From: Monodelphis domestica
Taxonomy: Eukaryota
Length of the DNA stretch: 64,000 nt
Direction: 5' to 3'
Assembly (NCBI RefSeq): GCF_027887165.1
Contig: NC_077230.1
Coordinates: 289,142,949 to 289,206,948, forward strand
Shown here: positions 3,095-63,472 of the stretch, one piece after another
How the letters are laid out: the number at the start of each line of letters is the position of its first letter
Numbering within the stretch: the stretch's first letter is position 1
Position numbers and translations under genes: made by a program
The notes under the pieces: generated by a model
What the model was told of the DNA's origin: nothing
What the model saw: the letters and a program-made list of their open reading frames with translations, nothing else
Databases searched by the model: none

Positions 3095-3830
3095 AAACTA
3101 TGAATAATTATTGGATTAAGAACTCAAAACATATGAAAAAATGTTCTAAATCATTACTGATTAGAGAATGGAAATCAAAACAATTCTACAGTATTATCTC
3201 ACATCTATCAGATTGGCTAAAGTGATAAAAGGGGGGGAAATGACAAATATTGGAGGCAATGTGGAAAAATGGGGACACTAATACAGTAGTGGTGTAACTA
3301 TGAACTGATTTAACTACTTAGGAGAGTAATTTGGAATTATGCCTAAAGAGTTATAAAACTGTGTGTGCTGTTAGACCCAGCAATACCAGTTTGGGGTCTG
3401 TTTCTCAAGATGATAAGGGAAAAATGAAAAGAATCTATGTGTTCCAAAATATTTATAGCAGGTCTTTGTGGTACATGATTGTGACAGAATATTACTGCAC
3501 CATAAGAAATGATGAGCAGATTAAATTTTTGTTAAATGGAAAGATCTACTTGAAATTATGAAGTGAGATGAGTACGACCAAGAGAACACTCTATACAACT
3601 ATAGAATTAGTATTTAAAGAATAACCTGTGAATGTCCACCTCTATAGAAAGGACTGATAAACAGAAACCTGAAAGATATTATATATATGTATATATATAC
3701 ATATATATATGTATTTTTAAAAATTTGTTGTTGTTGGATGTTGCCTCCTTTGATGCAGGGAGAAAGAGGGGAGAAGGGGTGAGATACCTGGGAATTTTAA
3801 AGTAAAAAAACTAATATTTTTAAATGTACA
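3095..3830 (+). mobile_element. L1 3' end fragment (sense): ORF2 C-terminal coding remnant plus 3' UTR
   Basis: Near-duplicate of 8195-9350: ...caattctacagtattatctcacatctatcagattggctaaagtgataaaag...tggaggcaatgtggaaaaatggggacactaatacag...ccaaagagttataaaactgtgtg... Confidence 0.7.
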
Positions 3831-6800
3831 CTTGACACACTTTTGAGTTTAATCTGCATATTGTTATCTTCTTCTCTATCACTTAAGTCTCAACAATCAA
3901 CAAAAAACAATAAATAAGCCCTGATTTGTAGCCTCAGCTGATTTCAAAGATGTAAATTCTCTCATTGCAAATTTAATAACTGGCTCTCTAAAGAGGGTTT
4001 CAGCTGTCTTTTGACATTCCTGTTGTTTGTATGTTAATAAATGCTTGTTGAATTGAGGAAACTGACTCCTCTTTTGTAAAATAGAGATAATACTTTAAGG
4101 ACTAACTTCAAAGGGTTTTTAGGTTAACATTTGTAATCATAATAAACTAATAACTGAGCTATTAGAGAAGATCAGTATGGATTGGAGTATTTGGAGTTAA
4201 GCTAACTACAGAATTTTAAGTACATTGCAGAAATTTTAATCTCCCAAACCAAAAGTATAGTGAATTTTATTCCATATAAGAATTATCTTTGTCCCTTTAT
4301 CTCTCCTCTTCTACCTCTTTTTTAAAAATCTAGACCTGTGATTTCATCAGTGTGGAAATCCTTTGACTGATGAAGATCAACAACTCCTACTTTTGGGGTT
4401 GCGGGGTTTAGGGGACAGAAGTCACATCACAGAGTTAAAAGGCATTATTTGAATCTGGATCTTTCTGACACCCAAGACTAGCCCTCTCTATCCACTAAAC
4501 CTCTAGTTATTCCATTTATTGCCTTGTATATTTGAGAATTCAGTTTTAAATTTCCTTTGCAAGCAAAAATTTCCTTTGATACATTTTATTAACAATAACA
4601 ATATAGTACTATAACTGCATTCAAATATCCACCAGTTAACCAAGCATTTATTAAGTACCTAGGCACTGAGGAAACACACAAAGAATGAAATAATCCCTGA
4701 TCAGAGAATTTATATTCTATAGGAAACAAACACATGTGTATACCAAATAAATAGGGAATACATACAAAATAGTTAAAAACAAGGTAGTCTGAGGAGAGTA
4801 TTTATAATGAGAAGATGAGGAAATTCTTCCTATAAAAAAATGCTGCTCAAGCTATATTGAGGAAGAGCGATTCTATGGGGCAGAGGTAAGGAGGAAGTAC
4901 CTTCCATGCAGGGAGGGCAAGCCTACATAACCAGTGAAAATACTACTACCTAACTTCTGACCAAGAAGAGTTAGGAGATGAAACCAGGCAATTTCATTAA
5001 AGAGATCAGAGTCCACTGCTCAAATTTCCATTTGTTGAAAGTAAAATGTAGGCTCCATGAAGGCTAACTTCTCACTTTTGTATTTGTATACCCATCATCT
5101 AGCACAATAATAGGACCTTAATAAATGCTTGTTAATTAAATGACAAATATCTAACCTAACAATTAGAATCTTAAGTTAGAAAGAACCTCATAGGTAATCT
5201 AATCTAAGATATACTTCATGAAATAAATACAAAACAAGAATTTCCTCTACAATAGCCCCAACAAGTTATCATTCAGCCTTCACTTGAAGGCCTCTATGGA
5301 GGTGGAACCCACTACTCCCCATCGAAGACCTTTCCACTTTTCTAACCGGAAAAGCACTCATCAGGCTTCTTTTTTTTCCAAGTTCTCCTTTCTGATAAAA
5401 ACCAAGATTGAGTAGGTAAAGAATTTAGAGTTGGTTTTTTTGTTTGTTTGTTTTTCAGAAAATTACAGCAGACATAACTAACTGAAGAAGTAGTATGTCC
5501 AAGATAAATATGGATCAGTAAGCACAATATGAAACATTATTATGCAAAATTACAAGTATTATTCTATAAGCTTACTGGGGCATGGGGGGAGAGATGGAGG
5601 GGGACTCAGGGGAGGCCTGATTGCTTGAAAAATCTCCCAGTCGAGATAGCCAAAGTTCAGCTTGAAAGTTTTATTCCTACTTAGGATGTACAAAATGCAG
5701 GTTCTCACTTTGCCAACTGAAATGAGGTAGGTGGGGGAAGAGGTCAGGGAGCCTCTCCAAGAACTCTTAAACCCACCAACAAAATAAGAGTTTTTACATT
5801 TCCTTGGGTCTTATTTGCCAAGCACTTCTCAAAACGGGGAGCTGAAAAATCTTTTAATGTCAGGATACTTACTACATGTTTGACTCACGGAAAGTCTTAA
5901 CCTTTCTGGCCCTCAAGTTTCATCTGTAAAATAAGAGGGGCAGGGCATGGGGTCATGGAGTGAATCTCAATCCTACCTCTGGCACTCGCTACTTGTGGAC
6001 CTGGAAAGTCTCTTTGTGCTGTTTTCTCTTCTATATAAAATGAGGACGTTGGATTTGACAGACTGTGAGGTCCTTTCCAGCTCTCGAATCTCTCTGCCCC
6101 AGCAATTGTCGGGAAGAAGGAAAATTCTTGGGAGTAAGTTTCATCGTCCATCAGTGGAGGCCAAGTTACTAGGTCCTCTTGTAGTTCAGCCGGGGAAGGC
6201 GGAGTCTGCTCCCATGCCCCCACCCCTTTCCGCCCTCCATATACGCCCGCTAACAGGAGCATTCTGGGAAGGGAAAGGGAGTCTTTCCAAGTCCTTGGGT
6301 GTTTTCTTTCGGTTTTGAGGGTTTGGGTTTTTCCCCTGGTTCCGTAGAACAGTCTAGAACTTGGAAGCAGGAAACCCTCGGATAGAGGGGCATAAATCCC
6401 GCTGCCAGGTGTGTATGAGCCCTTCTCAGCTCCCTTTGAACTATCCTTTCCCTGAGTTGAACTTCCAGTCTTGCTTTTCTGTTGCCACCTATCAGCCAAA
6501 GTCTGACTGCTTCTAGCCGCTGTTCTGTGCTGCATCCCCAGGGTGCTTTTGCGTCTTCTTATGCTCTGTGACAGTTGGCGGCTTTCAACTACCCCCTCCT
6601 CCCTAGACTGATATGCCTCAAGTTCAAATGATAGGTTATTATTGTCTTTTAAATGCACCATATGTTTGAGGTCACTTGGTTCTTAAGCAAAGTTTCTCTT
6701 CGAGAAGATCTCTTAGTTCTCATAATCCTCAAAGTCGGGTGATTGTTTATTTTATTTTCAAGGGGTGAGGTAGGATTTTGAGGAAGAAGGAAATGGAAGG

Positions 6801-8194: not shown

Positions 8195-9352
8195 AGATGG
8201 AGGTTAATACACAGTAATCATAATGGTGAAAAAATTATGTTTCTCTAATAAAAATCCTTATTTCTCAAATACATAGAGAAGTGAGTCAAATGTATAAGAA
8301 TATAAATCATTCCCCAGTTAATAATGGTCAAAGGATATAAAAAAGGCAGTTTTCAGATGAAACAGTCAAAACTATATATAACTATGTGAAAAAAATACTC
8401 TAAATCATTATTAGAAAAATGCAAATGAAACAACTCAGAGGTACCACCTCATACCTATCAGACTGACTACTATGACAGAAAAGGAAAATGACAACAGTTG
8501 GAGGTATGTGGGGAAATTGAGACACTAATGCATTGTGAGAGTTGTAAATTAATTGAGACTAGAAAGCACTTTGGACCTATGCCCAAAGAACTGTAAAACT
8601 AAATCTACCCTTTGACCCAACAATATCATTACTAGGTCTCTATCCAGGGAATAGGACCTATATGTACAAAAGGAAAAGGATATATATGTATATATATTAT
8701 ATTATTTATATATTTTATTATATATTTACATATATATTATGTATATATATGTAAAAATATTTAAAGCAGATTTTTTTGTGGTGGTAAATTGAAAAGTTAG
8801 GGGATACCCATCAATTGGGGAATAGTTAAGTAAGCTCTGGTATATGCTTCTAATGGAATACTGTATTGTGCTATAAGAAATGATGAGTAGGATGATTTCA
8901 GAAAAACTAGGACTTTCATGAATTAATGCAGAATGAAGTGAGCAGGAGAACCAGAAGAACACTGTACATTGTCATAGCAATACTGTACAATGAACAATTG
9001 TGATTGATTTAGCTGTTTTCAGCAGTACAAAGATCCAAGACAATCCCAAAGGATCAGGATGAAAATTGCCATCTGCCTCCAGAAAAACCCAATGCAGTCT
9101 GAATCCAAATGAAAGCATACATTTCACTTTTTTCATTTTTTAGTCATTTTCTTCCACAAAAGAGCCAATATGGAAAAATATTTTACATTGTTATTTGCAC
9201 ATGTAAAATCTATATCATATTGCTTACTGTCTCAGTGAAGTGTGAGAGGAAGGAGCAAGGGAGAGAAAACAGAAGTCAAAATTTTTTTTAAAAACCCAAT
9301 GTTAAAAATTTTACAAATAATTGGGGGGAAGAAAGAAAAAAAAAGCACTATA
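8195..9352 (+). mobile_element. L1 3' end fragment (sense), interrupted by a TA-rich microsatellite at 8680-8760
   Basis: ...aaatcattattagaaaaatgcaaatgaaacaactcagaggtaccacctcatacctatcagactgactactatgacagaaaagg...cccaaagaactgtaaaactaaatc...; translation resembles the L1 ORF2 C-terminus. Confidence 0.75.
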
Positions 9353-10188: not shown

Positions 10189-10384
10189 AGAAGCAATTTT
10201 TAACATTGATTTTTTAAAATATTTTGAGTTCTAAATTCTTTCCATCCCTCTGCTTCCCTCTCCCTGAGATAGTAAGCAATTTGGTATAGGTTATACATAT
10301 TCTAACATATAATGCATATTGCCATATTCATCATGTTATAGAAGAAGACACACATCACTAAAAGAAAAACTTTTGGAATCAATA

Positions 10385-10548
10385 CTGTGTATTGGTTCCA
10401 AGGCAGAAGAGTGGTAAGGGCTAGGGAATGGGGATTAAATGACTTGCCAGGGTCACACAGTTGGGAAGTGTCTGAGGCCAGATTTGAATCTCGGACTTTC
10501 CATCTCTAGGACTGGCTTTCAATCTACTGAGCTACCCAGCTGCCCCCT
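10385..10548 (-). mobile_element. tRNA-derived SINE family A (tail-truncated), second insertion into the same L1
   Basis: aatactgtgtattggttccaaggcagaagagtggtaagggctagggaatgggg...ctactgagctacccagctgccccc. Confidence 0.8.
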
Positions 10549-11002
10549 AAAAGAAAAACTGTTAAGGACGATAAAGTGAAAAATAGTATGCTTGGATCTG
10601 CATTGAGACTCCATCAGTTATTTCTTTGGTAATGGATAGCACTTTTCACCATGAGCCCTTTGGAGCTGTCTTATATCATTGTATTGATGGTAATAGCCAA
10701 GTCTTACAGTTGATCACTGTACAAGTATTGCTATTACTATGTAACAATGTTCTTTTAGTTCTGTTCACTTCACTTTGCATTAGTTCATACAAGTCTTTCC
10801 AGGTTTTTCTGAAATCATCCCAAATAAAGGATATTTGATCCTGGAGGTGACAGGAAGGCATTAGAGTTTATTGAGTAGGTGGAGGTGATAAATGGTCAGA
10901 TTGTGCTTTAGAAAGATCACTTTGGCAGCTGAGTGAGGGTGGACTGAAGGTGGGATAAACATGTGTCAGGGACACCAAGCAGCAGGTTATTACAATAGTC
11001 TA

Positions 11003-11222: not shown

Positions 11223-12952
11223 TTCATGAGGAGATGAAGTGGTAGTGTTGGAGGAAAGAAGGAGGCATGCTTGCAAAGGTAAAATCAACAAAACCTGGCC
11301 ATAGATTGGATATGGTAAGTGAGAGAGACTGAGGAGTTGAGTATGACATCTAGTTTTCAATCCTGCTTGACCAGGAGGATGTGGTAGCTGTTACAAGGGA
11401 ATCACTTTAAAAGACTGATATATATTAATTTAAGGTCGCCAAGGAATTCAGCTATGTAATTCCTAAATGAAAAACTCAAGTCAGCCGTCAGCCTTTTTTG
11501 GGGTTTAATTACAATAGGAGTAAGAAAGGAATTAGAGATAGAGAGAGAGAAAAATGGAGAGAAGGGAATAGGGCTTAAATACCCCTTCTGTTTAGGCTGG
11601 GCCAAAAGGCCCAAGCCCTTAGATAGCTGGGGCAAAGAAAAGAGATCAGTCCCTATTACTCACGTGTCCAAAATGGAGAAACAGTCTCAGAGGCCCCCAC
11701 CTTCAGCTTCCTTCAGAGCAAACCTTCTCAGAGCCCAGGAACCACACTGACCAAAACCTCAACCACCTCCTGGAGTCTTCAGACCCCCTATCTTTAAGGA
11801 AAACCAATCAAGTTCATCCCCTCAGTTCTCCCATCTACCAATCACTCTTCATCAATTTCCCTGTGCCAATGGAGGCTCTAGCTTAACCCAGGACCGCCCA
11901 GAGGTTTCTGGCTTTTGCACATGTCTGTTGAAGGTCATATTTTCAAATGATTAAATCTTTACTCCTTTGCTACAGCCCTTTCTAAATCCTGTTAACTTGA
12001 GTATGGTAGAGATTGGAATAATTAAATTTTGATCTAGGCTGCAGCCCTTACTCAATCCTATTAGGACTGAATAGGGTGGAGATTTATTCCAAGTATCTCC
12101 ATTGTATCAATTCTAAAATCAATCAAGACTCAAAGAAATTCCTGTTCTATGCTTAAGCATAGGTCAAAGTCTTTTCCATTGTTCAGCAAAGGGTTTCTGT
12201 CCTAAAGTAATCTTAAGAAGGGAAGAGAAAGAACCTCCCATGCCAATGGGGTTCCCATTCCAATAGACTATCAGTAAGAAATTTTCCAAGTATGAAATAT
12301 CCCAATGGTGAAATTTCCAACATTTATAAGTCTAAGGAAATTTGAGGTTTACATAGCCTCCATAGTAATAGGGAAGTTAGGAAGAGAGAAGGGTTTGGGA
12401 AGAAAGATAATGAGTTCTACTTAGGTAATATTAAATTTAATATGTCTATAGGATATTCAGTGCAAAATGTCCAATAGGCAGATGGAGAGGTGGAATGAGA
12501 GGTCAACACAGAGGTTAAGGCTGGCTAAGTAAATTTGAGAGTTATCAGTATGGAGGTGTGATAATTCAATCCAAGAAGATTGATGAGATCACCAAGTGAA
12601 ATGGTATAGAAAGAGAAGAGGGCCCAGAATAGATCCTTGAGGGACACTTATAGTTACGGGGTGTGACCCAGATGAAGGTCCAGTAAAAGTACTTGAAATG
12701 CTTTTTGGATACTTAAAGTATTTTTTTTTCTAATGCCTATGTTCTGGACTTTGGCTGTGACATTCATAGGATTTTTCCTTTTGGGAATTCCTTTCAGGAG
12801 ATAATCAATAGATTCTTAGTCCCCTCTGCTTCTAGTATATCTGAATACTTTTCTTCAATAATTTAAAAAAATATAGTGGTTATGGTTGTCAGGGAGTCCA
12901 GTGATCCTCAGATTATCTTTCCTTAATCCATCTTCCAAGTCAGTTGTTTTGA

Positions 12953-13150
12953 AAATCATTTATTTTCCTTTTAGGGAAGCTAGGTGTCATATAGATAGAG
13001 TGCTGGATTTGAGGTCAGGAAGACCTGATTTCAAATGAAGCCTCAGACACTCATTGGCTGTGTGGTCCTGGGCAAATCACTTAATCCCCTTTGCCTCAGT
13101 TCCTCATCTATAAAATGAGCTGGAAAAGGAAATGGCAAATGAATTAGGTC
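12953..13150 (+). mobile_element. tRNA/CORE type SINE (family B)
   Basis: ggaagctaggtgtcatatagatagagtgctggatttgaggtcaggaagacctgatttcaaatg...ctcatctataaaatgagctggaaaaggaaatggcaaat. Confidence 0.75.
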
Positions 13151-13254
13151 TAAAGCATGTGTACATTTTGACCTTTTTTTTGGTATATGATGTGAGATAT
13201 TGGCTTGTGCCTATTTTCTGCAAAATAGCTTTCTAGTTTTCCTGACAAATTTTA

Positions 13255-13690
13255 TCAAATAGTGTATTATTGCCCCCAAAGCTTGGATTTTTGAAATAGC
13301 ATTAAAATTTTTTGAGTTCCAAATTCTCTCCTTCACTCCAACCCCTCTCCCACTCATTGAGAAGGTAAGCAATAGGATATCCATTATAGATTCATGGTCA
13401 TGCAAAATATATTTCCATATTAGCTGCCTTGCACAATAAATAAATGAATAGATAAAACAAGAAAAATAAACTTCAAAAAGTATGCTTCAATCTGCACTCA
13501 GAATTCATCAGCTCTCTCTCTGGAAGTGGATAGCATCTTTCTGTAATGAGTCTTTTGAAAATTGCTTTGGATCATTAGATTGATAAAAGTAGCTAAGTCT
13601 TTCACAGTTGATCATTATTACAATATTGCTATTACAGTATATATAGTGTTTTCCTGGTTCTCTCCTCTTCATTTGTCTGCATTTTTTTTT
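13255..13690 (-). mobile_element. L1 3' end fragment (antisense) whose truncation point lies ~5-15 nt upstream of the acceptor of the PARP4 ATG exon
   Basis: 13290-13430 matches the antisense L1 3' terminus (aaattttttgagttccaaattctctccttcactcc...). 13490-13680 (ctctctggaagtggatagcatctttct...gtgttttcctggttctctcctcttcatttgtctgcat) is collinear with 61380-61560 (tctctggatgtagatagcattctttct...tgttttcctggttctactctttcactctgcat). Confidence 0.6.
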
Positions 13691-13702
13691 AACAGGATAA
13701 CC

Positions 13703-13828
13703 ATGGGAATGTTTAAAAATTACAGATTCTACTTGAAAGATGACAGTTTACAATACAAGCAGAAGAAATTCCTAAGAACTCATATTAAGAAAAATAATGG
13801 AAATGTTTCCTCTGTATTAACCCATAAG
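13703..13828 (+). CDS. PARP4: PARP4 start-codon exon (exon begins ~13696 after acceptor aacag; ATG at 13703 in strong Kozak accATGG); encodes MGMFKNYRFYLKDDSLQYKQKKFLRTHIKKNNGNVSSVLTHK
   Basis: Same length and pattern as human PARP4 N-terminus MVMGIFANCIFCLKVKYLPQQQKKKLQTDIKENGGKFSFSLNPQ (BRCT start); donor aag|gtatta at 13829; phase 0 into next exon. Confidence 0.82.
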
Positions 13829-14689
13829 GTATTATTAAACTTTATATCTTGAGCTTTTTAAAGTATTGAGAGGCTACCATAAGGAATTAAGAAATCATAT
13901 CATTTGGTTAGAGAGATGAACTGAAAAATTCAATTCTTTTCTGGAGAGGAATAGCACAAAAGTAAGGTAATAAATCAAGAAGAAAGCTGGAATAATCTAA
14001 GGGAAAAAAGACTTCTAGGACCTATTATTATCAGTCATTTATTAAACACCAACTATGTGCAAATACAAATACAAACAAAAAGAAAAATAATTTCTTAGCC
14101 CTCCAATTAGTTTCCAGTCTTACAGACTGTACAAAAAGATAACATAAAATTGGGAAACCAAAAAGAGAAAGTGGAGTTAAGAAAGGAAGTAAAGTCAGGA
14201 CATCAGAAACAGAGCCAGGTAAGAGCATGGCTGGCCAAGGCACTTCCTTAAGGGAAAATTCTGGGCAAGAATTCACTAAATATTTGAGAGAGCCGTGATA
14301 GTAATAGAGAGCATATAGAGTTTTAAGTTTTAATCAAAGCACTTTACATGCATTACCTTATTTGGTGATTTGACCCACCTAGTTGAAATAAAATGTTTAA
14401 TTTTAAACATATAGAAAATAAAAGCATGATTCTTCAAGTAATTGAATATGCAGAATAAGAGGCAAAGCTGAATTCTAGAGTTTCCTCTTTTGATTTAGCA
14501 AATAAACTTTTATATTTCCCTATAGCAAAGTTAGGGAAAGGAGACTTTGGAATCATCTTCATTATGTGCATTCAGAGTTGACAACAAAACATCCTGTTGA
14601 AATATGAGCCAAATATTATTAGAAATTAGCCTCCCCAAAACAGAGATGTACTGATCTCCACAAATATGGCTTCAAATCTTTAAATGCAG

Positions 14690-23286: not shown

Positions 23287-25149
23287 TAATAGTAACAAGT
23301 TATACTAGAAAACACAGCAGGAAAAACTTTGCCCCTTGGCTTATTTTCCTCTGGTCTTTGGGAAAAGTTCTGCTTTAGGCATCATCCTACAGCCCAGAGA
23401 ACAGTTGTCCCATATGAGCTGATTTCACTGTTCCATTCAGAGCAAAAGTTCAAAAGTCTGGAACCCAAAGAGTGACTGAAAAAGGTTTAAATGGTGGCTA
23501 ACAATTAGAATTCTGAGCAACTAAGGATAATTTGAAGTTTACTACCTAAATTAATACTTTAAAACCATTGAGGAAGTCTGCCTCTCAGCCCTTTGTCTAC
23601 ACAGCTTTCTTGTTTTTCTTTTTGCCTCTGTTTTTAGGAACTTTTTATTTCTGTTTCTCACAAGGGAATTCAGTGTTGGGAAGGTGTTATCACTTACATG
23701 CTTTTTCTACTACCTTTCCAGTTATTTATAAATAAATTTCCAATGAATAAAAGATAAACACACATATTTAATAAAGAGAATAATTTATCTAAACTTTAGC
23801 ATTTCATAGAATGACTAGTTAAAGGAAAAAAGGGAAAAAGAGAATGAAGGAAAATATGTGCATTTTTATTTTATTTAACAACATCTAAAAAAACAAAGAG
23901 CGCAATTCCAATCTTAGAATCTCAAAAACTTCTGAAACTTATTTCAGATGAGGGTATATATTATGACTTTATTTCTTGGCTTAAAGTTGTACCAACATTA
24001 GCAAGAATAATTTCTAAAGGACTTGGGTACATTTTTTCCAGGATACATTTTGATTTATTTAAATGAGAAAAATAATTAGAATACATTAATATCTCAGTAG
24101 GTTTGTGGTCTCATCTGAGTGGGTAAAGAGCAGATGTCCAACCATCCTGCATTCCTTTCATGTGCATTTCTTGTCTGTGTCCTATAAATCTTCCATGGAG
24201 TCCATCTAACATGCCAAAGCCTTCTGGGTTTTTTCCATCTCTTTTGTAACATAACCAGGAACCTCCTTTTCCTACTATACACCTAATTACTGATGTCTTT
24301 TATGTTCCTTTTAGTCTGCAGTTCATTGCTGAAAATAAATTAGAGCCTTTTGACACCCATCCGCATCTTTCCACTGCCATTTGGATGATCATAATTTTGA
24401 TTCTTCAAAATTAGTTATAGTAGCCCATGATCTGGTAAAACATCACTGGAAGAATACTTGCATGAAAATAGGGCTTTTTTTGTTTCAGGATAAAACTTGG
24501 GTTTGTTTAAAGTGCTACATAATTTCTCAAATGCTACCTCCTTTCACTTCTTGGACAGTCAGTCATTCATTATCCATCAGTGACTATCTGAGTTATATAT
24601 ACTGACAGCCTAACTCTTTCTGCTGAATATGCAGCTATGTATTACAGTCTGAACAAGAGGCATCCTTCATCTACTTGATTTTCCTATTCTGGTTGATTAA
24701 ACTTAACTTTTTTGAATGATTATTGGTATCATTTAAGAGGTTTAAGGCATATTGCAAATACCATGGGGGTGATTGAGGAATCTCCTGAAATTATTTCCTG
24801 TGGAGTTCAGCATGAGCTTTAGTGCCTTGCTGTGGGACCTGTTTTCATCCCTTGCTGAAAGTCATGTTCCTTATGGAGATGTTACAAGTAGCTCCTGATT
24901 GATTACCAGTAACAAGAAGTGCACTGAAGATGACTTGCTACAGAGTCCAGAGGTACCATCCACTTAGTGAGCTAAAAAAATTGTTGGGGAGAACCAGCCC
25001 CACTTCTTTCTAAGACTCTTCCAGTACTTCCTCTCTGTTGGACTTTCATTCATCTACTATTCCTTTCCTCTGGGGCAATGGTGACTAGAATTTTATGGCA
25101 CCAAGAATATATGCTGGCCAAAGTGAGCCTAAGGACTTGGCCACCATCT

Positions 25150-25380
25150 TCTGCTTTCTATTTCCCTCCTTCCCTCCCTCCCCCTCCCTCCTTCTCTCTT
25201 TCCCTCCCTCTGTCCTTCCCTCCCTCCTCCCCTTTCCTCTTCCCCCCTTCCCTTCCTCTTTCCCTCCTTCCTTCTCTCCTTCTTTCCTTCCCTCTTTTCC
25301 TCTGTCCTTCCCTCCCTCCCTCTTTCTCTCCTTCCTTCCTTCTTTCTTTCCTTCCTTCCTTCTTTCATTTCCCTTGTCAT
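25150..25380 (+). repeat. Polypyrimidine compound microsatellite (TCCC/TTCC/CTTT)n, ~230 bp, sitting at the tail of an antisense SINE
   Basis: tccctccttccctccctccccctccctccttctctctttccctccc...ttccttccttctttctttccttccttccttc. Confidence 0.9.
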
Positions 25381-25500
25381 CTGTCTTAGAATCAATACTG
25401 TGCATTGGTTCCAAGGCAGAAGAGCAGTAAGGGCTAGGCAAGTGAGGTTAAATGACTTGCCCAGAGTCACATAGCTAGGAAGGGTCTGAGGGAAGATTGG
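25381..25500 (-). mobile_element. tRNA-derived SINE family A (antisense, head-truncated); its tail has expanded into the upstream microsatellite
   Basis: gtcttagaatcaatactgtgcattggttccaaggcagaagagcagtaagggctaggcaagtgaggttaaatgacttgcccagagtcacatagctaggaagggtctgagg. Confidence 0.75.
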
Positions 25501-38179: not shown

Positions 38180-39560
38180 TCTACACTAGAGAAAGCATCA
38201 TTTGACAAAAAGATACATGTGTTTATAAAACTATTTCTTGCTTATTTCTGTTTATCAGTTCTTTCTCTGGAAAACACAAATCATTCTTCAAGCAGTATTT
38301 CTGTTGCTGTACATAATGTTCTCTTGGTTCTGCTCATTTCACTCATAATGATTTCATATATGTCTTTCCAGATTATATGCAAATTTGTTTAGCCATTCCC
38401 CAGTTGATGGGTTCCTTTAATTTCCAATTCTTTGTCACCACAAAGAGAGTTGCTATAAATATTTTAGAACATAGAAGTTCTTTTCTTTTTTTCCCCTGAT
38501 CAGTTTAGGAAATAAATCTAATAGTGATTTTAGTGGGTCTCAAAGTATACATAGTTTTATAATTCTTTGGGCATAATTCCAGATTGTTCTCCAAAATGGT
38601 TGAATCAGTTCACAGTTCCACTAACAGTGTATTAGTGTCCCCATTTTCCCACATCTCTACCAGCATTTGTCATTTTACTCTTTTAGCATTTTAAGCAATC
38701 TGATAGCTGTGAGATATCTCAGACTTATTTTTATTTCCACTTCTCTAATCCGGAATGATTTAGAGGGGGCAACTGAGTGGCTCAGTGGACTGAGAGCCAG
38801 GCCTAGAGATGGGTGGTCCTAGATTCAAATCTGGCCTCAGACACTTCCCAGCTGTGTGACCCTGGGAAAGTCCCTTACTGCTCTTCTGCCTTGGAACCAA
38901 TACACAGTATTGATTCTAAGACAGAAGGTAAGGGTTTAAAAAAATTATATAGCACTTTTATATAGTTATAGATTGCTTTGATTTTTTCATCTTAAAACTG
39001 TCTATTCATATCTTTTGATCATTTTTCTCTTGGGGAATGGCTTATATTTTTATATATTTGACAAATGTTTTAGATATGAGACCTCTGTCTGAGAAACTGT
39101 CTATAAATTTTTCCCTCAATTTTCTGCTTTCCTTCTCATCATGACTACATTAATTTTATTTGTACAAAACTTTTTTAGTTTAATATAATCAAAATTATTC
39201 ATTTTACATCTTACAATGCTTTATTATCTTGTTCTTTATGAATTCTTTTCCTCTGTCTATAAATCTGATGATTAATACATTTTTCTAATTTGCTTATGAT
39301 CTCCCTTTATGACTACCTCATGTATTCATTTTTATTTTATCATAGTAAAGTGTTATAAGATATTGACCTATACCTGGTTTATGTCAGGCTATTTTCTAGT
39401 TTTTCCAACAGTTCTTACCAAATAATGAGTTCTTATCCCAAACTCTTGGATTTAGTCAAACACAAAGTTTGAATAATTTTGTTTGTTGTGTGTCTGTTTT
39501 ATTCCACTGATCTACTTTTCTACTTCTTAGACTATTAGTTTTGATAATTATTAATAATAA
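38180..39560 (-). mobile_element. L1 ORF2-3' fragment (antisense, ~1.2 kb), interrupted by the SINE at 38765-38945; antisense L1-like sequence may continue to ~39900
   Basis: ...gctgtacataatgttctcttggttctgctcatttcactcat...tttgtttagccattccccagttgatgggttcc...gtcaccacaaagagagttgctataaatatt... and ...cttttgatcatttttctcttggggaatggcttat...gtacaaaacttttttagtttaatataatcaaaattattcattttacat... are collinear with 61560-62300. Confidence 0.7.
38765..38945 (+). mobile_element. tRNA-derived SINE family A (sense) nested inside the antisense L1
   Basis: ggggcaactgagtggctcagtggactgagagccaggcctagagatgggtggtcctagattcaaatctggcctcagacacttcccagctgtgtgaccctgggaaagtc...caatacacagtattgattctaagacagaaggtaagggtttaaaaaaa. 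Confidence 0.85.
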
Positions 39561-61124: not shown

Positions 61125-62585
61125 TCTTAAAAATTATTTATTTATTTACTTAGAATTTTTTTCCATGGTTACATGATTCATGATTTATCCCTTCTTTCTT
61201 CCCTCCCCCTCCTGGAGCTGGTGAGCAATTCCACTGGGTTATACATGTATCATTGCTTAAAACCTATTTCCATGTTATCCATATTTGCAATAGAGTGATT
61301 TTTTAAAATGCCAATCATATCCCCATTGAGCCATGTGATCAATCATATATTTTTCTTCTTTGTTTCTGCTCCCACAGTTCTTTCTCTGGATGTAGATAGC
61401 ATTCTTTCTCATAAGTTTCTCTGAATTGTCCTGGATCATTGCATTGCTGCTAGTAGAGAAGTCCATTATGTTTGATTGTGCCAAAGTATATATCAGTCTC
61501 TGTGTACAATGTTTTCCTGGTTCTACTCTTTCACTCTGCATCAATTCTTGTAGGTCTTTTCGGTTCACATGCTTTTCAGCACAATAGTATTCTATCACCA
61601 TCAGATACCACAATTTGTTCAGCCATTCCCCAATCAATGGACACCCCCTAATTTTCCATTTTTTTTGCCACCACAAAGAGCGTGGCTATAAATATTTTTG
61701 TACAAGTATTTTTCCTTATTATCTTTTTGGGATACAAACTCAATCATGGTATGACTGGATCAAGGGGCAAGAATTCTTTTTAAAGGCCTTTGGGCATAGT
61801 TCCAAATTGCCTTCCAGGATGGTTTGACCAATTCACAACTCCACCAGCAATGAATTAGTGTCCCAATTTTGCCACATCCCCTCCAACATTTATCACTTTC
61901 TTTTGTTGCCATATTGGCCAGTCTGCTAAATGTGAGGTAGTACCTCAAAGTTGTTTTAATTTGCAGTTCTCTAATCATGAGGGATTTAGAATACTTTTTC
62001 ATGTGATTATTGATAGTTTTTATTTCATCTTAGAACTGCCTATTCATATCCTTTGACCATTTGTCGATTGGGGAATGGCTTGACTTTTAGTAAATTTGAT
62101 TTCATTCCTTATATATTTGGGGAATTAAACCTTTATTAGAGAGTTTTGTTATAAAGATGTTCTCTAAGTTTGTTGCTTTTCTTCTAATTTTTGGTTTTGT
62201 TTTGTTTGTACAAAACTTTTTAATTTGATGTAATCAAAATCATTCATTTTACATTTTGTAATGTTCTTTACCTCTTGCTTAGTCTTAAATGCCTTCCTTT
62301 CCCACAGATCTGACAGATATACTATTCTATGTTCACCTAATTTATTTATGACTTCATTCCATATATTTAAGTCATTTACCCATTTTGAATTTATCTTGAT
62401 ATAGGATATTGTTCTTTTTAGTCATATAATTGTGATCATTGTATCTGTTGCTTACCTGGTTCTAGTTGCTTCCCTCAGAACCAGTTTGTATATCTTCCCA
62501 TGTTTTTTTTCTGAATTCTTCTACATCATTTCTTGCAGTACAATAATATTCCATTACATTAATCCATGAACATGCATTTGTTAAA
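61125..62585 (-). mobile_element. L1 fragment (antisense, ~1.45 kb) spanning the 3' UTR and the C-terminal part of ORF2
   Basis: Minus-strand ORFs 61760-62002 (MKKYSKSLMIRELQIKTTLRYYLTFSRLANMATKESDKCWRGCGKIGTLIHCWWSCELVKPSWKAIWNYAQ) and 61275-61676 reproduce the conserved L1 ORF2 C-terminal motifs (MIREMQIKTTLRYHLTP...KCWRGCGE.GTLLHCWW.C.LVQP.WK.VW); the L1 3' terminus is at 61125-61300. Confidence 0.85.
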
Positions 62586-62669
62586 CAGTTATCATGTGCC
62601 AAGTACTGTGGAAAGTTCTAGAGATACAAAGCAAAAAGCAAAAACAAAACCCAGGCTATGTAGGCCCTC

Positions 62670-62885
62670 TATTATTTTTTCTTTTCTTTTCTTTTCTTTT
62701 CTTTTCTTTTCTTTTCTTTTCTTTTCTTTTCTTTTCTTTTCTTTTCTTTTCTTCCTTCCTTCCTTCCTTCCTTCCTTCCTTTCTTCCTTCCTTCCTTCCT
62801 TCCTTCCTTCCTTCCTTCCTTCTTTCCTTCCTTCCTTCCTTCCTTCCTTCCTTCCTTCCTTCCTTCCTTCCTTCTTTCCTTCTTT

Positions 62886-62971
<86 letters not shown>

Positions 62972-62990
62972 CTTCTCAAAAAGATCTCTT
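62670..62990 (+). repeat. Compound polypyrimidine microsatellite (TTTTC)n-(CCTT)n-(CT)n, ~320 bp
   Basis: (cttttc)x~18, then (ccttcctt) runs ~130 bp, then (ct)~45; one strand is entirely pyrimidine. Confidence 0.95.
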
Positions 62991-63472
62991 TTATGCTTCT
63001 TCTCTCTCCCTCAGTGGGCAAAAACTCTACCAAATATGCATAGTTAAGGAAAACAAATTTCCAAATTGGCCACATCCAAAAATTGTAGTGTCATTCTGTA
63101 CCTTAAATTCACCTCTGTACTAAATCCATCACCTCTAATTCAGAAAGCAGCTTACATGCTTTTTCCTTAGGCCTCTGAATCATGGTTGGTCATTGTTGTA
63201 TTGGTTAGAACTCTTAATTTAATCAAAGTTCTTTTTCTTTACAATGTTGTTATTGCATAAATTGTTCTCCTGATCTTTGTTACTTCACACTTCTATATTT
63301 ATTGTGTTCTTTATGTCACCCAAGTTAATTTTGCCTTCATTTTAGAACTTAAAACTGGAATTGTCAGTCTTTTAAAATGAAATTTTATGGACCAATAACT
63401 TAAGTAGCTCAAATGAGGTCAGGAAGAGTCAGATGCAACTGAAAATCAAACAAATTACTAATATTATTTAAG

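Follow-up and report, generated by a model that had tools for sequence, protein, structure and literature searches.

An antisense LINE-1 fragment at the acceptor of the PARP4 start-codon exon in Monodelphis domestica

How does an exon that carries the start codon of its gene continue to be spliced when a retrotransposon lies only a few nucleotides from its 3' splice site? PARP4 raises this question in the window analysed here, which is the whole 64,000 nt stretch of AT-rich eukaryotic DNA from Monodelphis domestica. The 5' half of the gene lies on the + strand of the window in approximately 20 collinear exons that encode BRCT, PARP, and VIT domains. Around the first coding exon, positions 13676-13705 read tctgcaTTTTTTTTTAACAG/GATAACCATGG (a slash marks the exon boundary), with the AG of the acceptor at 13694-13695, the first exon base at 13696, and the ATG at 13703. 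The original prediction placed the end of an antisense L1 about 5-15 nt from this acceptor, and the gap proves to be 12-13 nt, consisting of T7-8 followed by AACAG. Our preferred answer, which we regard as moderately probable, is that the truncated end of an antisense L1 (~390 nt) came to lie 12-13 nt from the acceptor in intron 1 by direct insertion and that signals derived from the L1 sustain splicing of the exon. The features on which the argument turns are the following.

12965-13139, + strand: SINE fragment (..ttcctcatctataaaatgagctgg..), cut off at 13139, with more than 15 in-window matches on both strands
13140-13291, - strand: second antisense L1 piece, from the middle of ORF2 (approximately residues 915-975 in human numbering)
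13292-13683, - strand: L1 fragment A, antisense to PARP4; secure core 13304-13683, left end approximate
13647-13693, + strand: AG-free stretch of 47 nt, 81% pyrimidine; the previous AG ends at 13646
13671, + strand: predicted branch-point adenine at -25 in TTCAT, which fits yUnAy; the only adenine in -18 to -45
13684-13690, + strand: proximal polypyrimidine tract, nine T counting 13682-13683; aligns with the T-rich tracts of primate and grebe
13691-13695, + strand: AACAG 3' splice site, AG at 13694-13695; position ancestral
13696-13828, + strand: first coding exon of PARP4, with 7 nt of 5'UTR, ATG at 13703, 42 codons, and donor AAG/gtatta at 13829

A truncated L1 fragment and its neighbours

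Pfam returned no match for any L1 piece of the window, and the name of the repeat was instead obtained by sequence search against solved structures of human ORF2p. Collinear L1 copies are found in both orientations at 3136-3388, 8380-9345, 10195-10820, 13304-13683, 38240-38765, and 61375-61999. The consensus of the in-window copies matches residues 1107-1269 of human LINE-1 ORF2p (E 6e-30), and the related protein P0070 matches residues 1044-1266 (E 1e-78). On the strand complementary to PARP4, the consensus translation reads ..CWR..CGKIGTLIHC..AIWNYAQRTIKLCLPFDPAISLLGLYPK..GEWLNK..EYYCA..DLHELMQSEVSRTRRTLYT.., and fragment A carries the last ~16 codons of ORF2 (sense strand MQTNEEERTRKTLYIL, then the stop) together with most of a 3'UTR that is collinear with copies B and C described below. 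BLAST within the window pairs fragment A with 9287-8925 on the opposite strand (68% over 388 nt, E 2e-24) and, on the same strand, with 10571-10781 (72%, E 1.5e-20) and 61375-61463 (73%, E 2e-6). The last two were among three collinear antisense copies proposed originally. The third, at 38240-38420, belongs to an antisense L1 spanning 38240-39510; it gave no significant BLAST match to fragment A and is collinear with it in the multiple alignment only, at 55% identity. Fragment A differs from the other copies by 27-32%, and because of this divergence of roughly 30% we read it as an old, fixed insertion, which in turn counts against a currently harmful effect.

All alignments of fragment A end at 13682-13683. 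The copies compared across this edge (B, 10660-10835; C, 8860-9040 as its reverse complement; D, 61420-61600; and E, 38240-38420) stay mutually similar for at least 30-45 nt beyond 13683, where they read GCATTAgTTCATAnAAGTCTTTCCAGG, and two external L1 relatives with intact ORFs, the ENA contigs L003 and L004, also run on past the edge of fragment A. A profile HMM was built from these six sequences, leaving fragment A out. In nhmmer, the profile aligns to 13477-13682 (E 7.7e-31) from node 231 of 436, and 230 profile positions remain unused where the alignment of fragment A stops at 13682. Since the other copies and the profile both continue beyond this point, fragment A is truncated on its L1-5' side at 13682/13683, a point at which the element does not naturally stop. 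The edge can be placed to within 2 nt, as the two T at 13682-13683 fit both the GCATT of the L1 and the T-run that follows. The profile match and the ORF2p homology of the consensus bear out the original reading of the repeat as an antisense L1. The sharp end to the similarity that had been noted at 13680 is real as well, but it lies 2-3 nt further to the right, at 13682-13683.

On its L1-3' side, fragment A abuts the piece at 13140-13291 with no poly(A) between them, and the two are not collinear with each other. This second piece matches 39319-39453 (E 8e-5), an interval collinear with the rest of the antisense L1 at 38240-39510. Its translation matches residues 928-959 of human ORF2p (E 0.02-0.03), and all five matches listed are L1 ORF2 chains, one of them deposited as 'RNA-directed DNA polymerase'. 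The interval originally drawn for the L1 started at 13255; its right part is fragment A, but 13255-13291 belongs to this separate, non-collinear ORF2 piece. Further upstream, the second piece gives way to the SINE fragment, presumably a MIR/MAR-like marsupial SINE. No T-run that could represent a poly(A) tail occurs at the L1-3' side of fragment A (~13292-13304), whereas copy C retains its tail at ~9330-9345. The missing tail is no bar to an L1 origin because its loss is expected for an old, rearranged copy. The flanks likewise offer no pair in which to look for a target-site duplication: the right flank is the T-run, another repeat has taken the place of the left one, and with a mosaic of repeats on that side no duplication is recoverable.

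Three other readings of this side were considered and set aside. An L1 3' end at ~13273, suggested by a 'TTGGGGG' common to copy C, was rejected because the alignment to 39290-39510 assigns this stretch to the adjacent ORF2 piece. For 12700-12970 on the minus strand, an ORF1-like reading drew no support from Pfam or PDB. Twin priming was dropped because both L1 pieces have the same orientation. In a region as rearranged as this one, a later deletion could just as well have produced the right-hand L1 boundary.

The ancestral acceptor and the arrival of the L1

The age of the acceptor relative to the L1 was approached by comparison with the PARP4 5' regions of the primate Pygathrix (L001) and the grebe Podilymbus (L002). 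The aligned acceptors are as follows.

Primate acceptor: ..cttttttcctacag/GATGATGATGGGAATC; junction ..cctacag/GATGATGATGG
Grebe acceptor: ..cctttctctttaacag/GACAGCAATGACAATC; junction ..tttaacag/GACAGCAATGA
Window acceptor: ..gcatttttttttaacag/GATAACCATGGGAATG; junction ..tttaacag/GATAACCATGG

In all three species, the AG stands 7 nt before the aligned ATG (M-G/T-I/M-F codons). The acceptor position and TTTAACAG/GA are common to window, grebe, and primate, and TTTAACAGGA is identical in grebe and window. Similarity among the three species extends from the T-rich tract through to the donor, with none upstream of the tract. Over 40 positions across the junction, the grebe matches the window at 27, a value that was reached in 0 of 20000 shuffles. 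Because the short T-run/AACAG stretch and its position are common to primate and grebe, the acceptor is ancestral and not derived from the L1. The proximal T-run is probably ancestral and non-L1 too, and it may be a surviving copy of the target site.

This boundary bears directly on how the L1 arrived. The consensus target of the L1 endonuclease is TTTT/AA, where the slash is the nick, as Feng in 1996 and Jurka in 1997 are said to have described. A T-run is to be expected beside an acceptor anyway, so that a match to the endonuclease site in such a place is weak evidence. For an antisense insert, target-primed reverse transcription predicts on the sense strand a (T)n-extended [..TTTT], then the reverse complement of the L1, then [..TTTT]AA... 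The order observed at the junction is L1 end, T-run, and AACAG up to the exon; the T-run/AA junction, TTTTTTTTT/AACAG, directly follows the truncated end and is on the strand predicted for an antisense insert. The AA that precedes CAG is ancestral, being common to the grebe. As the junction fits TTTT/AA and its AA is ancestral, the simplest history is one in which the tract of the acceptor was itself the endonuclease target, and this suggests direct insertion into the old pyrimidine tract. In such a history, the endonuclease would have nicked the sense strand of the gene inside the acceptor's own pyrimidine tract, at TTTT/AACAG, and target-primed reverse transcription would have put the L1 just upstream of the T-run. 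The T-run and AACAG would have remained beside the exon, with the duplicated T-run keeping a working tract by the AG, and the original branch site would have been displaced by at least 390 nt. Further hits on the regenerated T-run/AA site may also have occurred and would account for the antisense L1 pieces stacked upstream. With neither a duplication nor a tail preserved, and with rearrangements close by, the case for direct insertion is weak.

A different history would have the L1 inserted further upstream in intron 1 and then brought up to the acceptor by a deletion that took its 5' part, the intervening intron, and the old branch site. The irregular other end of the L1, which lacks poly(A) and runs into a non-collinear L1 piece with a truncated SINE beyond it, speaks for such a juxtaposition, as do the deletions or rearrangements that occurred nearby and the target-site duplication that was not found. 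Against it, L1 copies are most often 5'-truncated already when they insert, the T-run/AA at the junction is exactly what insertion by the endonuclease should leave, and it would be risky in its own right for a deletion to stop 12 nt short of an essential acceptor. We consider juxtaposition by deletion unlikely, although it is a serious competitor.

Branch site, pyrimidine tract, and tolerance

Direct insertion at this position would have moved the old branch site away from the exon. Branch points usually lie 18-40 nt upstream of the acceptor in the consensus yUnAy, and by the AG-exclusion rule the interval between branch point and acceptor is free of AG. The only adenines between -8 and -50 are A13671 and A13681, and both are in the L1. 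A13681 lies at -15 in TGCAT and does not fit yUnAy; A13671 is the only yUnAy match within the usual branch-point range. The scarcity of candidates sets this acceptor apart, with 1 adenine in -18 to -45 versus 5-14 at the other 19 PARP4 acceptors in the window. Other L1 copies have CTTCAC at the same place, which makes the motif native to the L1. Every adenine from -8 to approximately -400 is in L1-derived DNA, and the 555 nt upstream of the T-run/AACAG are repeat-derived throughout (L1 pieces 13140-13683, SINE 12965-13139). Because all of these 555 nt are L1 or SINE, the branch point should be repeat-derived, and the branch site of the start exon lies almost certainly in L1-derived DNA. The original prediction had proposed that the branch point be predicted, and motif and geometry put it at A13671 (-25, TTCAT). 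The branch point is most probably this adenine, a call that rests on a loose motif together with geometry.

The pyrimidine tract has two apparent sources. Except for its last ~10 nt, the AG-free stretch is the antisense strand of the purine-rich end of ORF2, and the whole of 13647-13693 would act as an extended pyrimidine tract. We part company in one respect with the original prediction, in which the tract and probably the branch point sat inside or at the very edge of the L1. This holds for the distal tract and for the predicted branch site, but the proximal T-run and AACAG are non-L1. We infer that the L1 supplies the branch point and the larger, distal portion of the pyrimidine tract.

Alternatively, the L1 could be a passive neighbour, with the signals in use not derived from it; for example, recognition could depend on nothing but the T9 tract, paired with a branch point that is very distal or not an adenine. 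Branch points can indeed be non-canonical or distal. However, the non-L1 sequence before the exon amounts to only 12-13 nt, and any branch point at the usual distance would therefore be repeat-derived, with the same source extending over the 555 nt upstream. We regard passive proximity as very improbable.

If L1-derived signals are in use, the antisense end of ORF2 would have supplied both an AG-free tract that is 81% pyrimidine and a ready branch motif, TTCAC in copies elsewhere and TTCAT here. Four circumstances would account for the tolerance of the insert: it is short, it is antisense, it would have preserved the proximal signals, and small shifts of the acceptor would be harmless to the reading frame. 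The last follows from the layout of the exon. Its first 7 nt are 5'UTR, and the stretch 13547-13702, the 155 nt upstream of the start codon, is free of ATG, so small acceptor shifts would spare the reading frame. Weak AGs borne by the L1 lie at 13637 and 13646, and their use would only lengthen the 5'UTR. In its most specific form, the proposal is that a constitutive, essential exon came to be spliced via A13671 and the antisense ORF2 tract after an endonuclease hit that moved the ancestral branch site by ~400 nt or more. We see the chances of this detailed version as evenly balanced.

The exon, its gene, and known parallels

The interpretation presumes that the exon at 13696-13828 is the one that provides the PARP4 start codon, as was claimed from the outset. 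A human PARP4 sequence used solely as a probe aligns by tblastn in ~20 collinear pieces on the + strand, from 13697 to 64000, and consensus AG and GT sites flank every piece in the window. The spliced window translation passes the Pfam cut-offs for BRCT (from residue 4), the PARP catalytic domain, and VIT. Its best database matches are proteins named PARP4 by their sources, with identities of 58-59% to eutherians and 45-50% to most birds. Such values, in an L1-rich genome, agree with a marsupial origin. The collinear exons, the PARP4-named matches, and the BRCT domain that begins at residue 4 all agree with the claim. The matches of the 574-residue spliced query are eutherian, bird, reptile, amphibian, and fish PARPs, along with a few invertebrate or unnamed metagenome PARPs, with no marsupial protein among them. 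The 42-residue peptide of the start exon found no match in the protein collection searched, and neither did two degenerate-pattern scans of metagenome contigs for the start-codon exon. The lack of a marsupial PARP4 in that collection, which seems to contain nothing much longer than 1000 residues, leaves some room for another ATG exon or acceptor in this species. Yet the exon is open, its homologue in primate and bird PARP4 is the exon that encodes the N-terminal BRCT, its splice sites are consensus and stand at positions conserved with the primate and grebe orthologues, and ~19 intact exons follow. We accordingly give the use of another exon or acceptor little credence.

That the acceptor and first exon bases are themselves L1, by exonisation or by replacement of the ancestral acceptor, is scarcely credible: copy B does match 18 of the 40 nt after the L1 break in register (shuffle p ~0.011), and MAFFT gives 56% identity to copies B and E, but copy C matches only 11 of 40, the grebe reaches 27 of 40 with TTTAACAGGA identical, the profile HMM stops at 13682, and the acceptor has the same codon-relative position in primate and bird. 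A continuation of L1 homology through the acceptor was thus passed over in favour of bird and primate orthology, and the leftover L1 resemblance after 13683 is treated as compositional chance. With an acceptor and exon orthologous to those of primate and bird, and an L1 profile that ends at 13682, the locus is not a case of TE exonisation.

The comparison with exonisation is nevertheless instructive. As in the exonisation of antisense Alu and L1 elements, a poly-purine or A-rich retroelement read on its antisense strand offers the spliceosome usable pyrimidine-rich sequence and branch-like motifs. In those cases, the TE supplies the tract, the branch site, and the AG of a new exon, whereas the AG, proximal T-run, and exon of PARP4 appear ancestral, and the part of the L1 would be limited to taking over the upstream signals of a constitutive exon that already existed. 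A second parallel is with disease-causing L1 and Alu insertions near acceptors, which also place a retroelement in or next to the tract or branch region, often at T-rich endonuclease sites. Those insertions are recent and harmful, leading to exon skipping or mis-splicing, while the PARP4 L1 appears old (~30%) and fixed, is antisense, and is compatible with an intact gene. If a branch point in the L1 were confirmed, the locus would be a clean natural example of a retrotransposon tolerated inside essential acceptor signals. It would mean that the antisense coding end of an L1 can stand in for a branch site and pyrimidine tract, an exaptation of a retrotransposon as a core splice signal and not as a new exon. 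Such a case would help to calibrate predictions of harm from intronic TE insertions; it leaves knowledge of L1, of splicing, and of PARP4 unchanged.

How unusual the arrangement is can be judged against genome-wide surveys and within the window itself. Zhang, Romanish and Mager (2011, PMC3088655) found LINEs to be under-represented near exons, out to 50 bp in human and to 100 bp in mouse, with the depletion strongest within 20 bp of acceptors. Where TEs do come within 20 bp of an exon, they show a strong bias towards the donor side, and the depletion at acceptors was attributed to the 20-50 bp of signals located there (PMC3088655). The TEs that persist in this exon-proximal 'underrepresentation zone' are shorter and show a stronger orientation bias, which for LINEs is antisense, and four of five mutagenic L1s were sense-oriented (PMC3088655). 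The PARP4 fragment resembles these persisting elements in being a short antisense LINE within 50-100 bp of an exon. It differs from most of the cases in that study in its distance of less than 20 bp from an acceptor, which places it in the rarest sub-class, in its marsupial host, and in its position at a start-codon exon. The arrangement is uncommon, yet it belongs to the recognised tail of a known distribution and does not represent a new mechanism. The original view that a TE so close to an acceptor is unusual agrees with the human and mouse depletion (PMC3088655) and with the other acceptors of the gene. By self-comparison, which detects repeats over 15% of the window and underestimates the true repeat content, of the 20 PARP4 acceptors, that of the start exon alone has a detectable repeat within 100 nt. 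The repeat lies 13 nt from this acceptor, and the next nearest distances are 100, 152, and 307 nt.

The acceptor and the repeat mosaic before it

Whether L1 sequence continues from the antisense fragment at 13304-13683 through the acceptor of the PARP4 ATG exon was assessed by aligning the acceptor and exon start (13684-13723) in register with 10784-10823 of copy B, another L1 copy in the window. Of the 40 aligned positions, 18 are identical (p ~0.011 by shuffling). We judged this likeness to be chance because the orthologue from the grebe Podilymbus is a far better match to the same stretch and copy C, an L1 copy on the opposite strand to copy B, does not match it. The final ~1 kb of PARP4 intron 1 (12600-13700) is a mosaic of pieces:

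Pieces at the end of PARP4 intron 1
12700-12970, minus strand, ORF1-like reading, without support from Pfam or PDB searches
12965-13139, truncated SINE
13140-13291, antisense, middle piece of L1 ORF2
13292-13683, antisense, L1 3' end

The two L1 pieces share an orientation, but their order is not that of one continuous L1, an arrangement that could be explained by repeated insertion at the same T-run/AA site or by deletions. Insertions are present within two other L1 copies: a SINE (ggggcagctgggtagctcagt...) lies in the 3'UTR of copy B (10340-10560), and an AT-rich, microsatellite-like insertion interrupts the ORF2 remnant of copy C (8680-8765).

Protein relatives of the L1 copies and of PARP4

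Among proteins, the window's L1 is most closely related to ~150 short unnamed sequences from ENA metagenome assemblies, of which 120 were listed, and the ORF2 C-termini are intact among these listed matches. Two ENA contigs carrying such relatives are ERZ27259999 (L003) and ERZ27260069 (L004). These metagenome sequences look like host contamination with a marsupial-type L1. For PARP4, no matching protein in the searched collection exceeded ~1004 residues, compared with a full length of ~1700 for the family. No full-length (marsupial) PARP4 was found there, since the collection seems to be without long proteins.

Base composition and open reading frames

The stretch at 600-1400, ~12 kb upstream of the PARP4 ATG exon, resembles a CpG island (GC 0.54-0.62, CpG observed/expected 0.58-0.86), in a window that has 35% GC and is poor in CpG elsewhere. 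This stretch is plausibly the PARP4 promoter together with a non-coding exon 1. No ORF of the window is longer than the one at 5897-6661 on the minus strand (254 residues), which falls within PARP4 intron 1 and is overlapped by a 123-residue ORF on the opposite strand. Long simple or low-complexity repeats with a purine/pyrimidine bias (GGAAG/CTTCC-like and GA/CT) occupy 25085-25470 and 62566-63123, and spurious ORFs of 110-185 residues arise from them on both strands.
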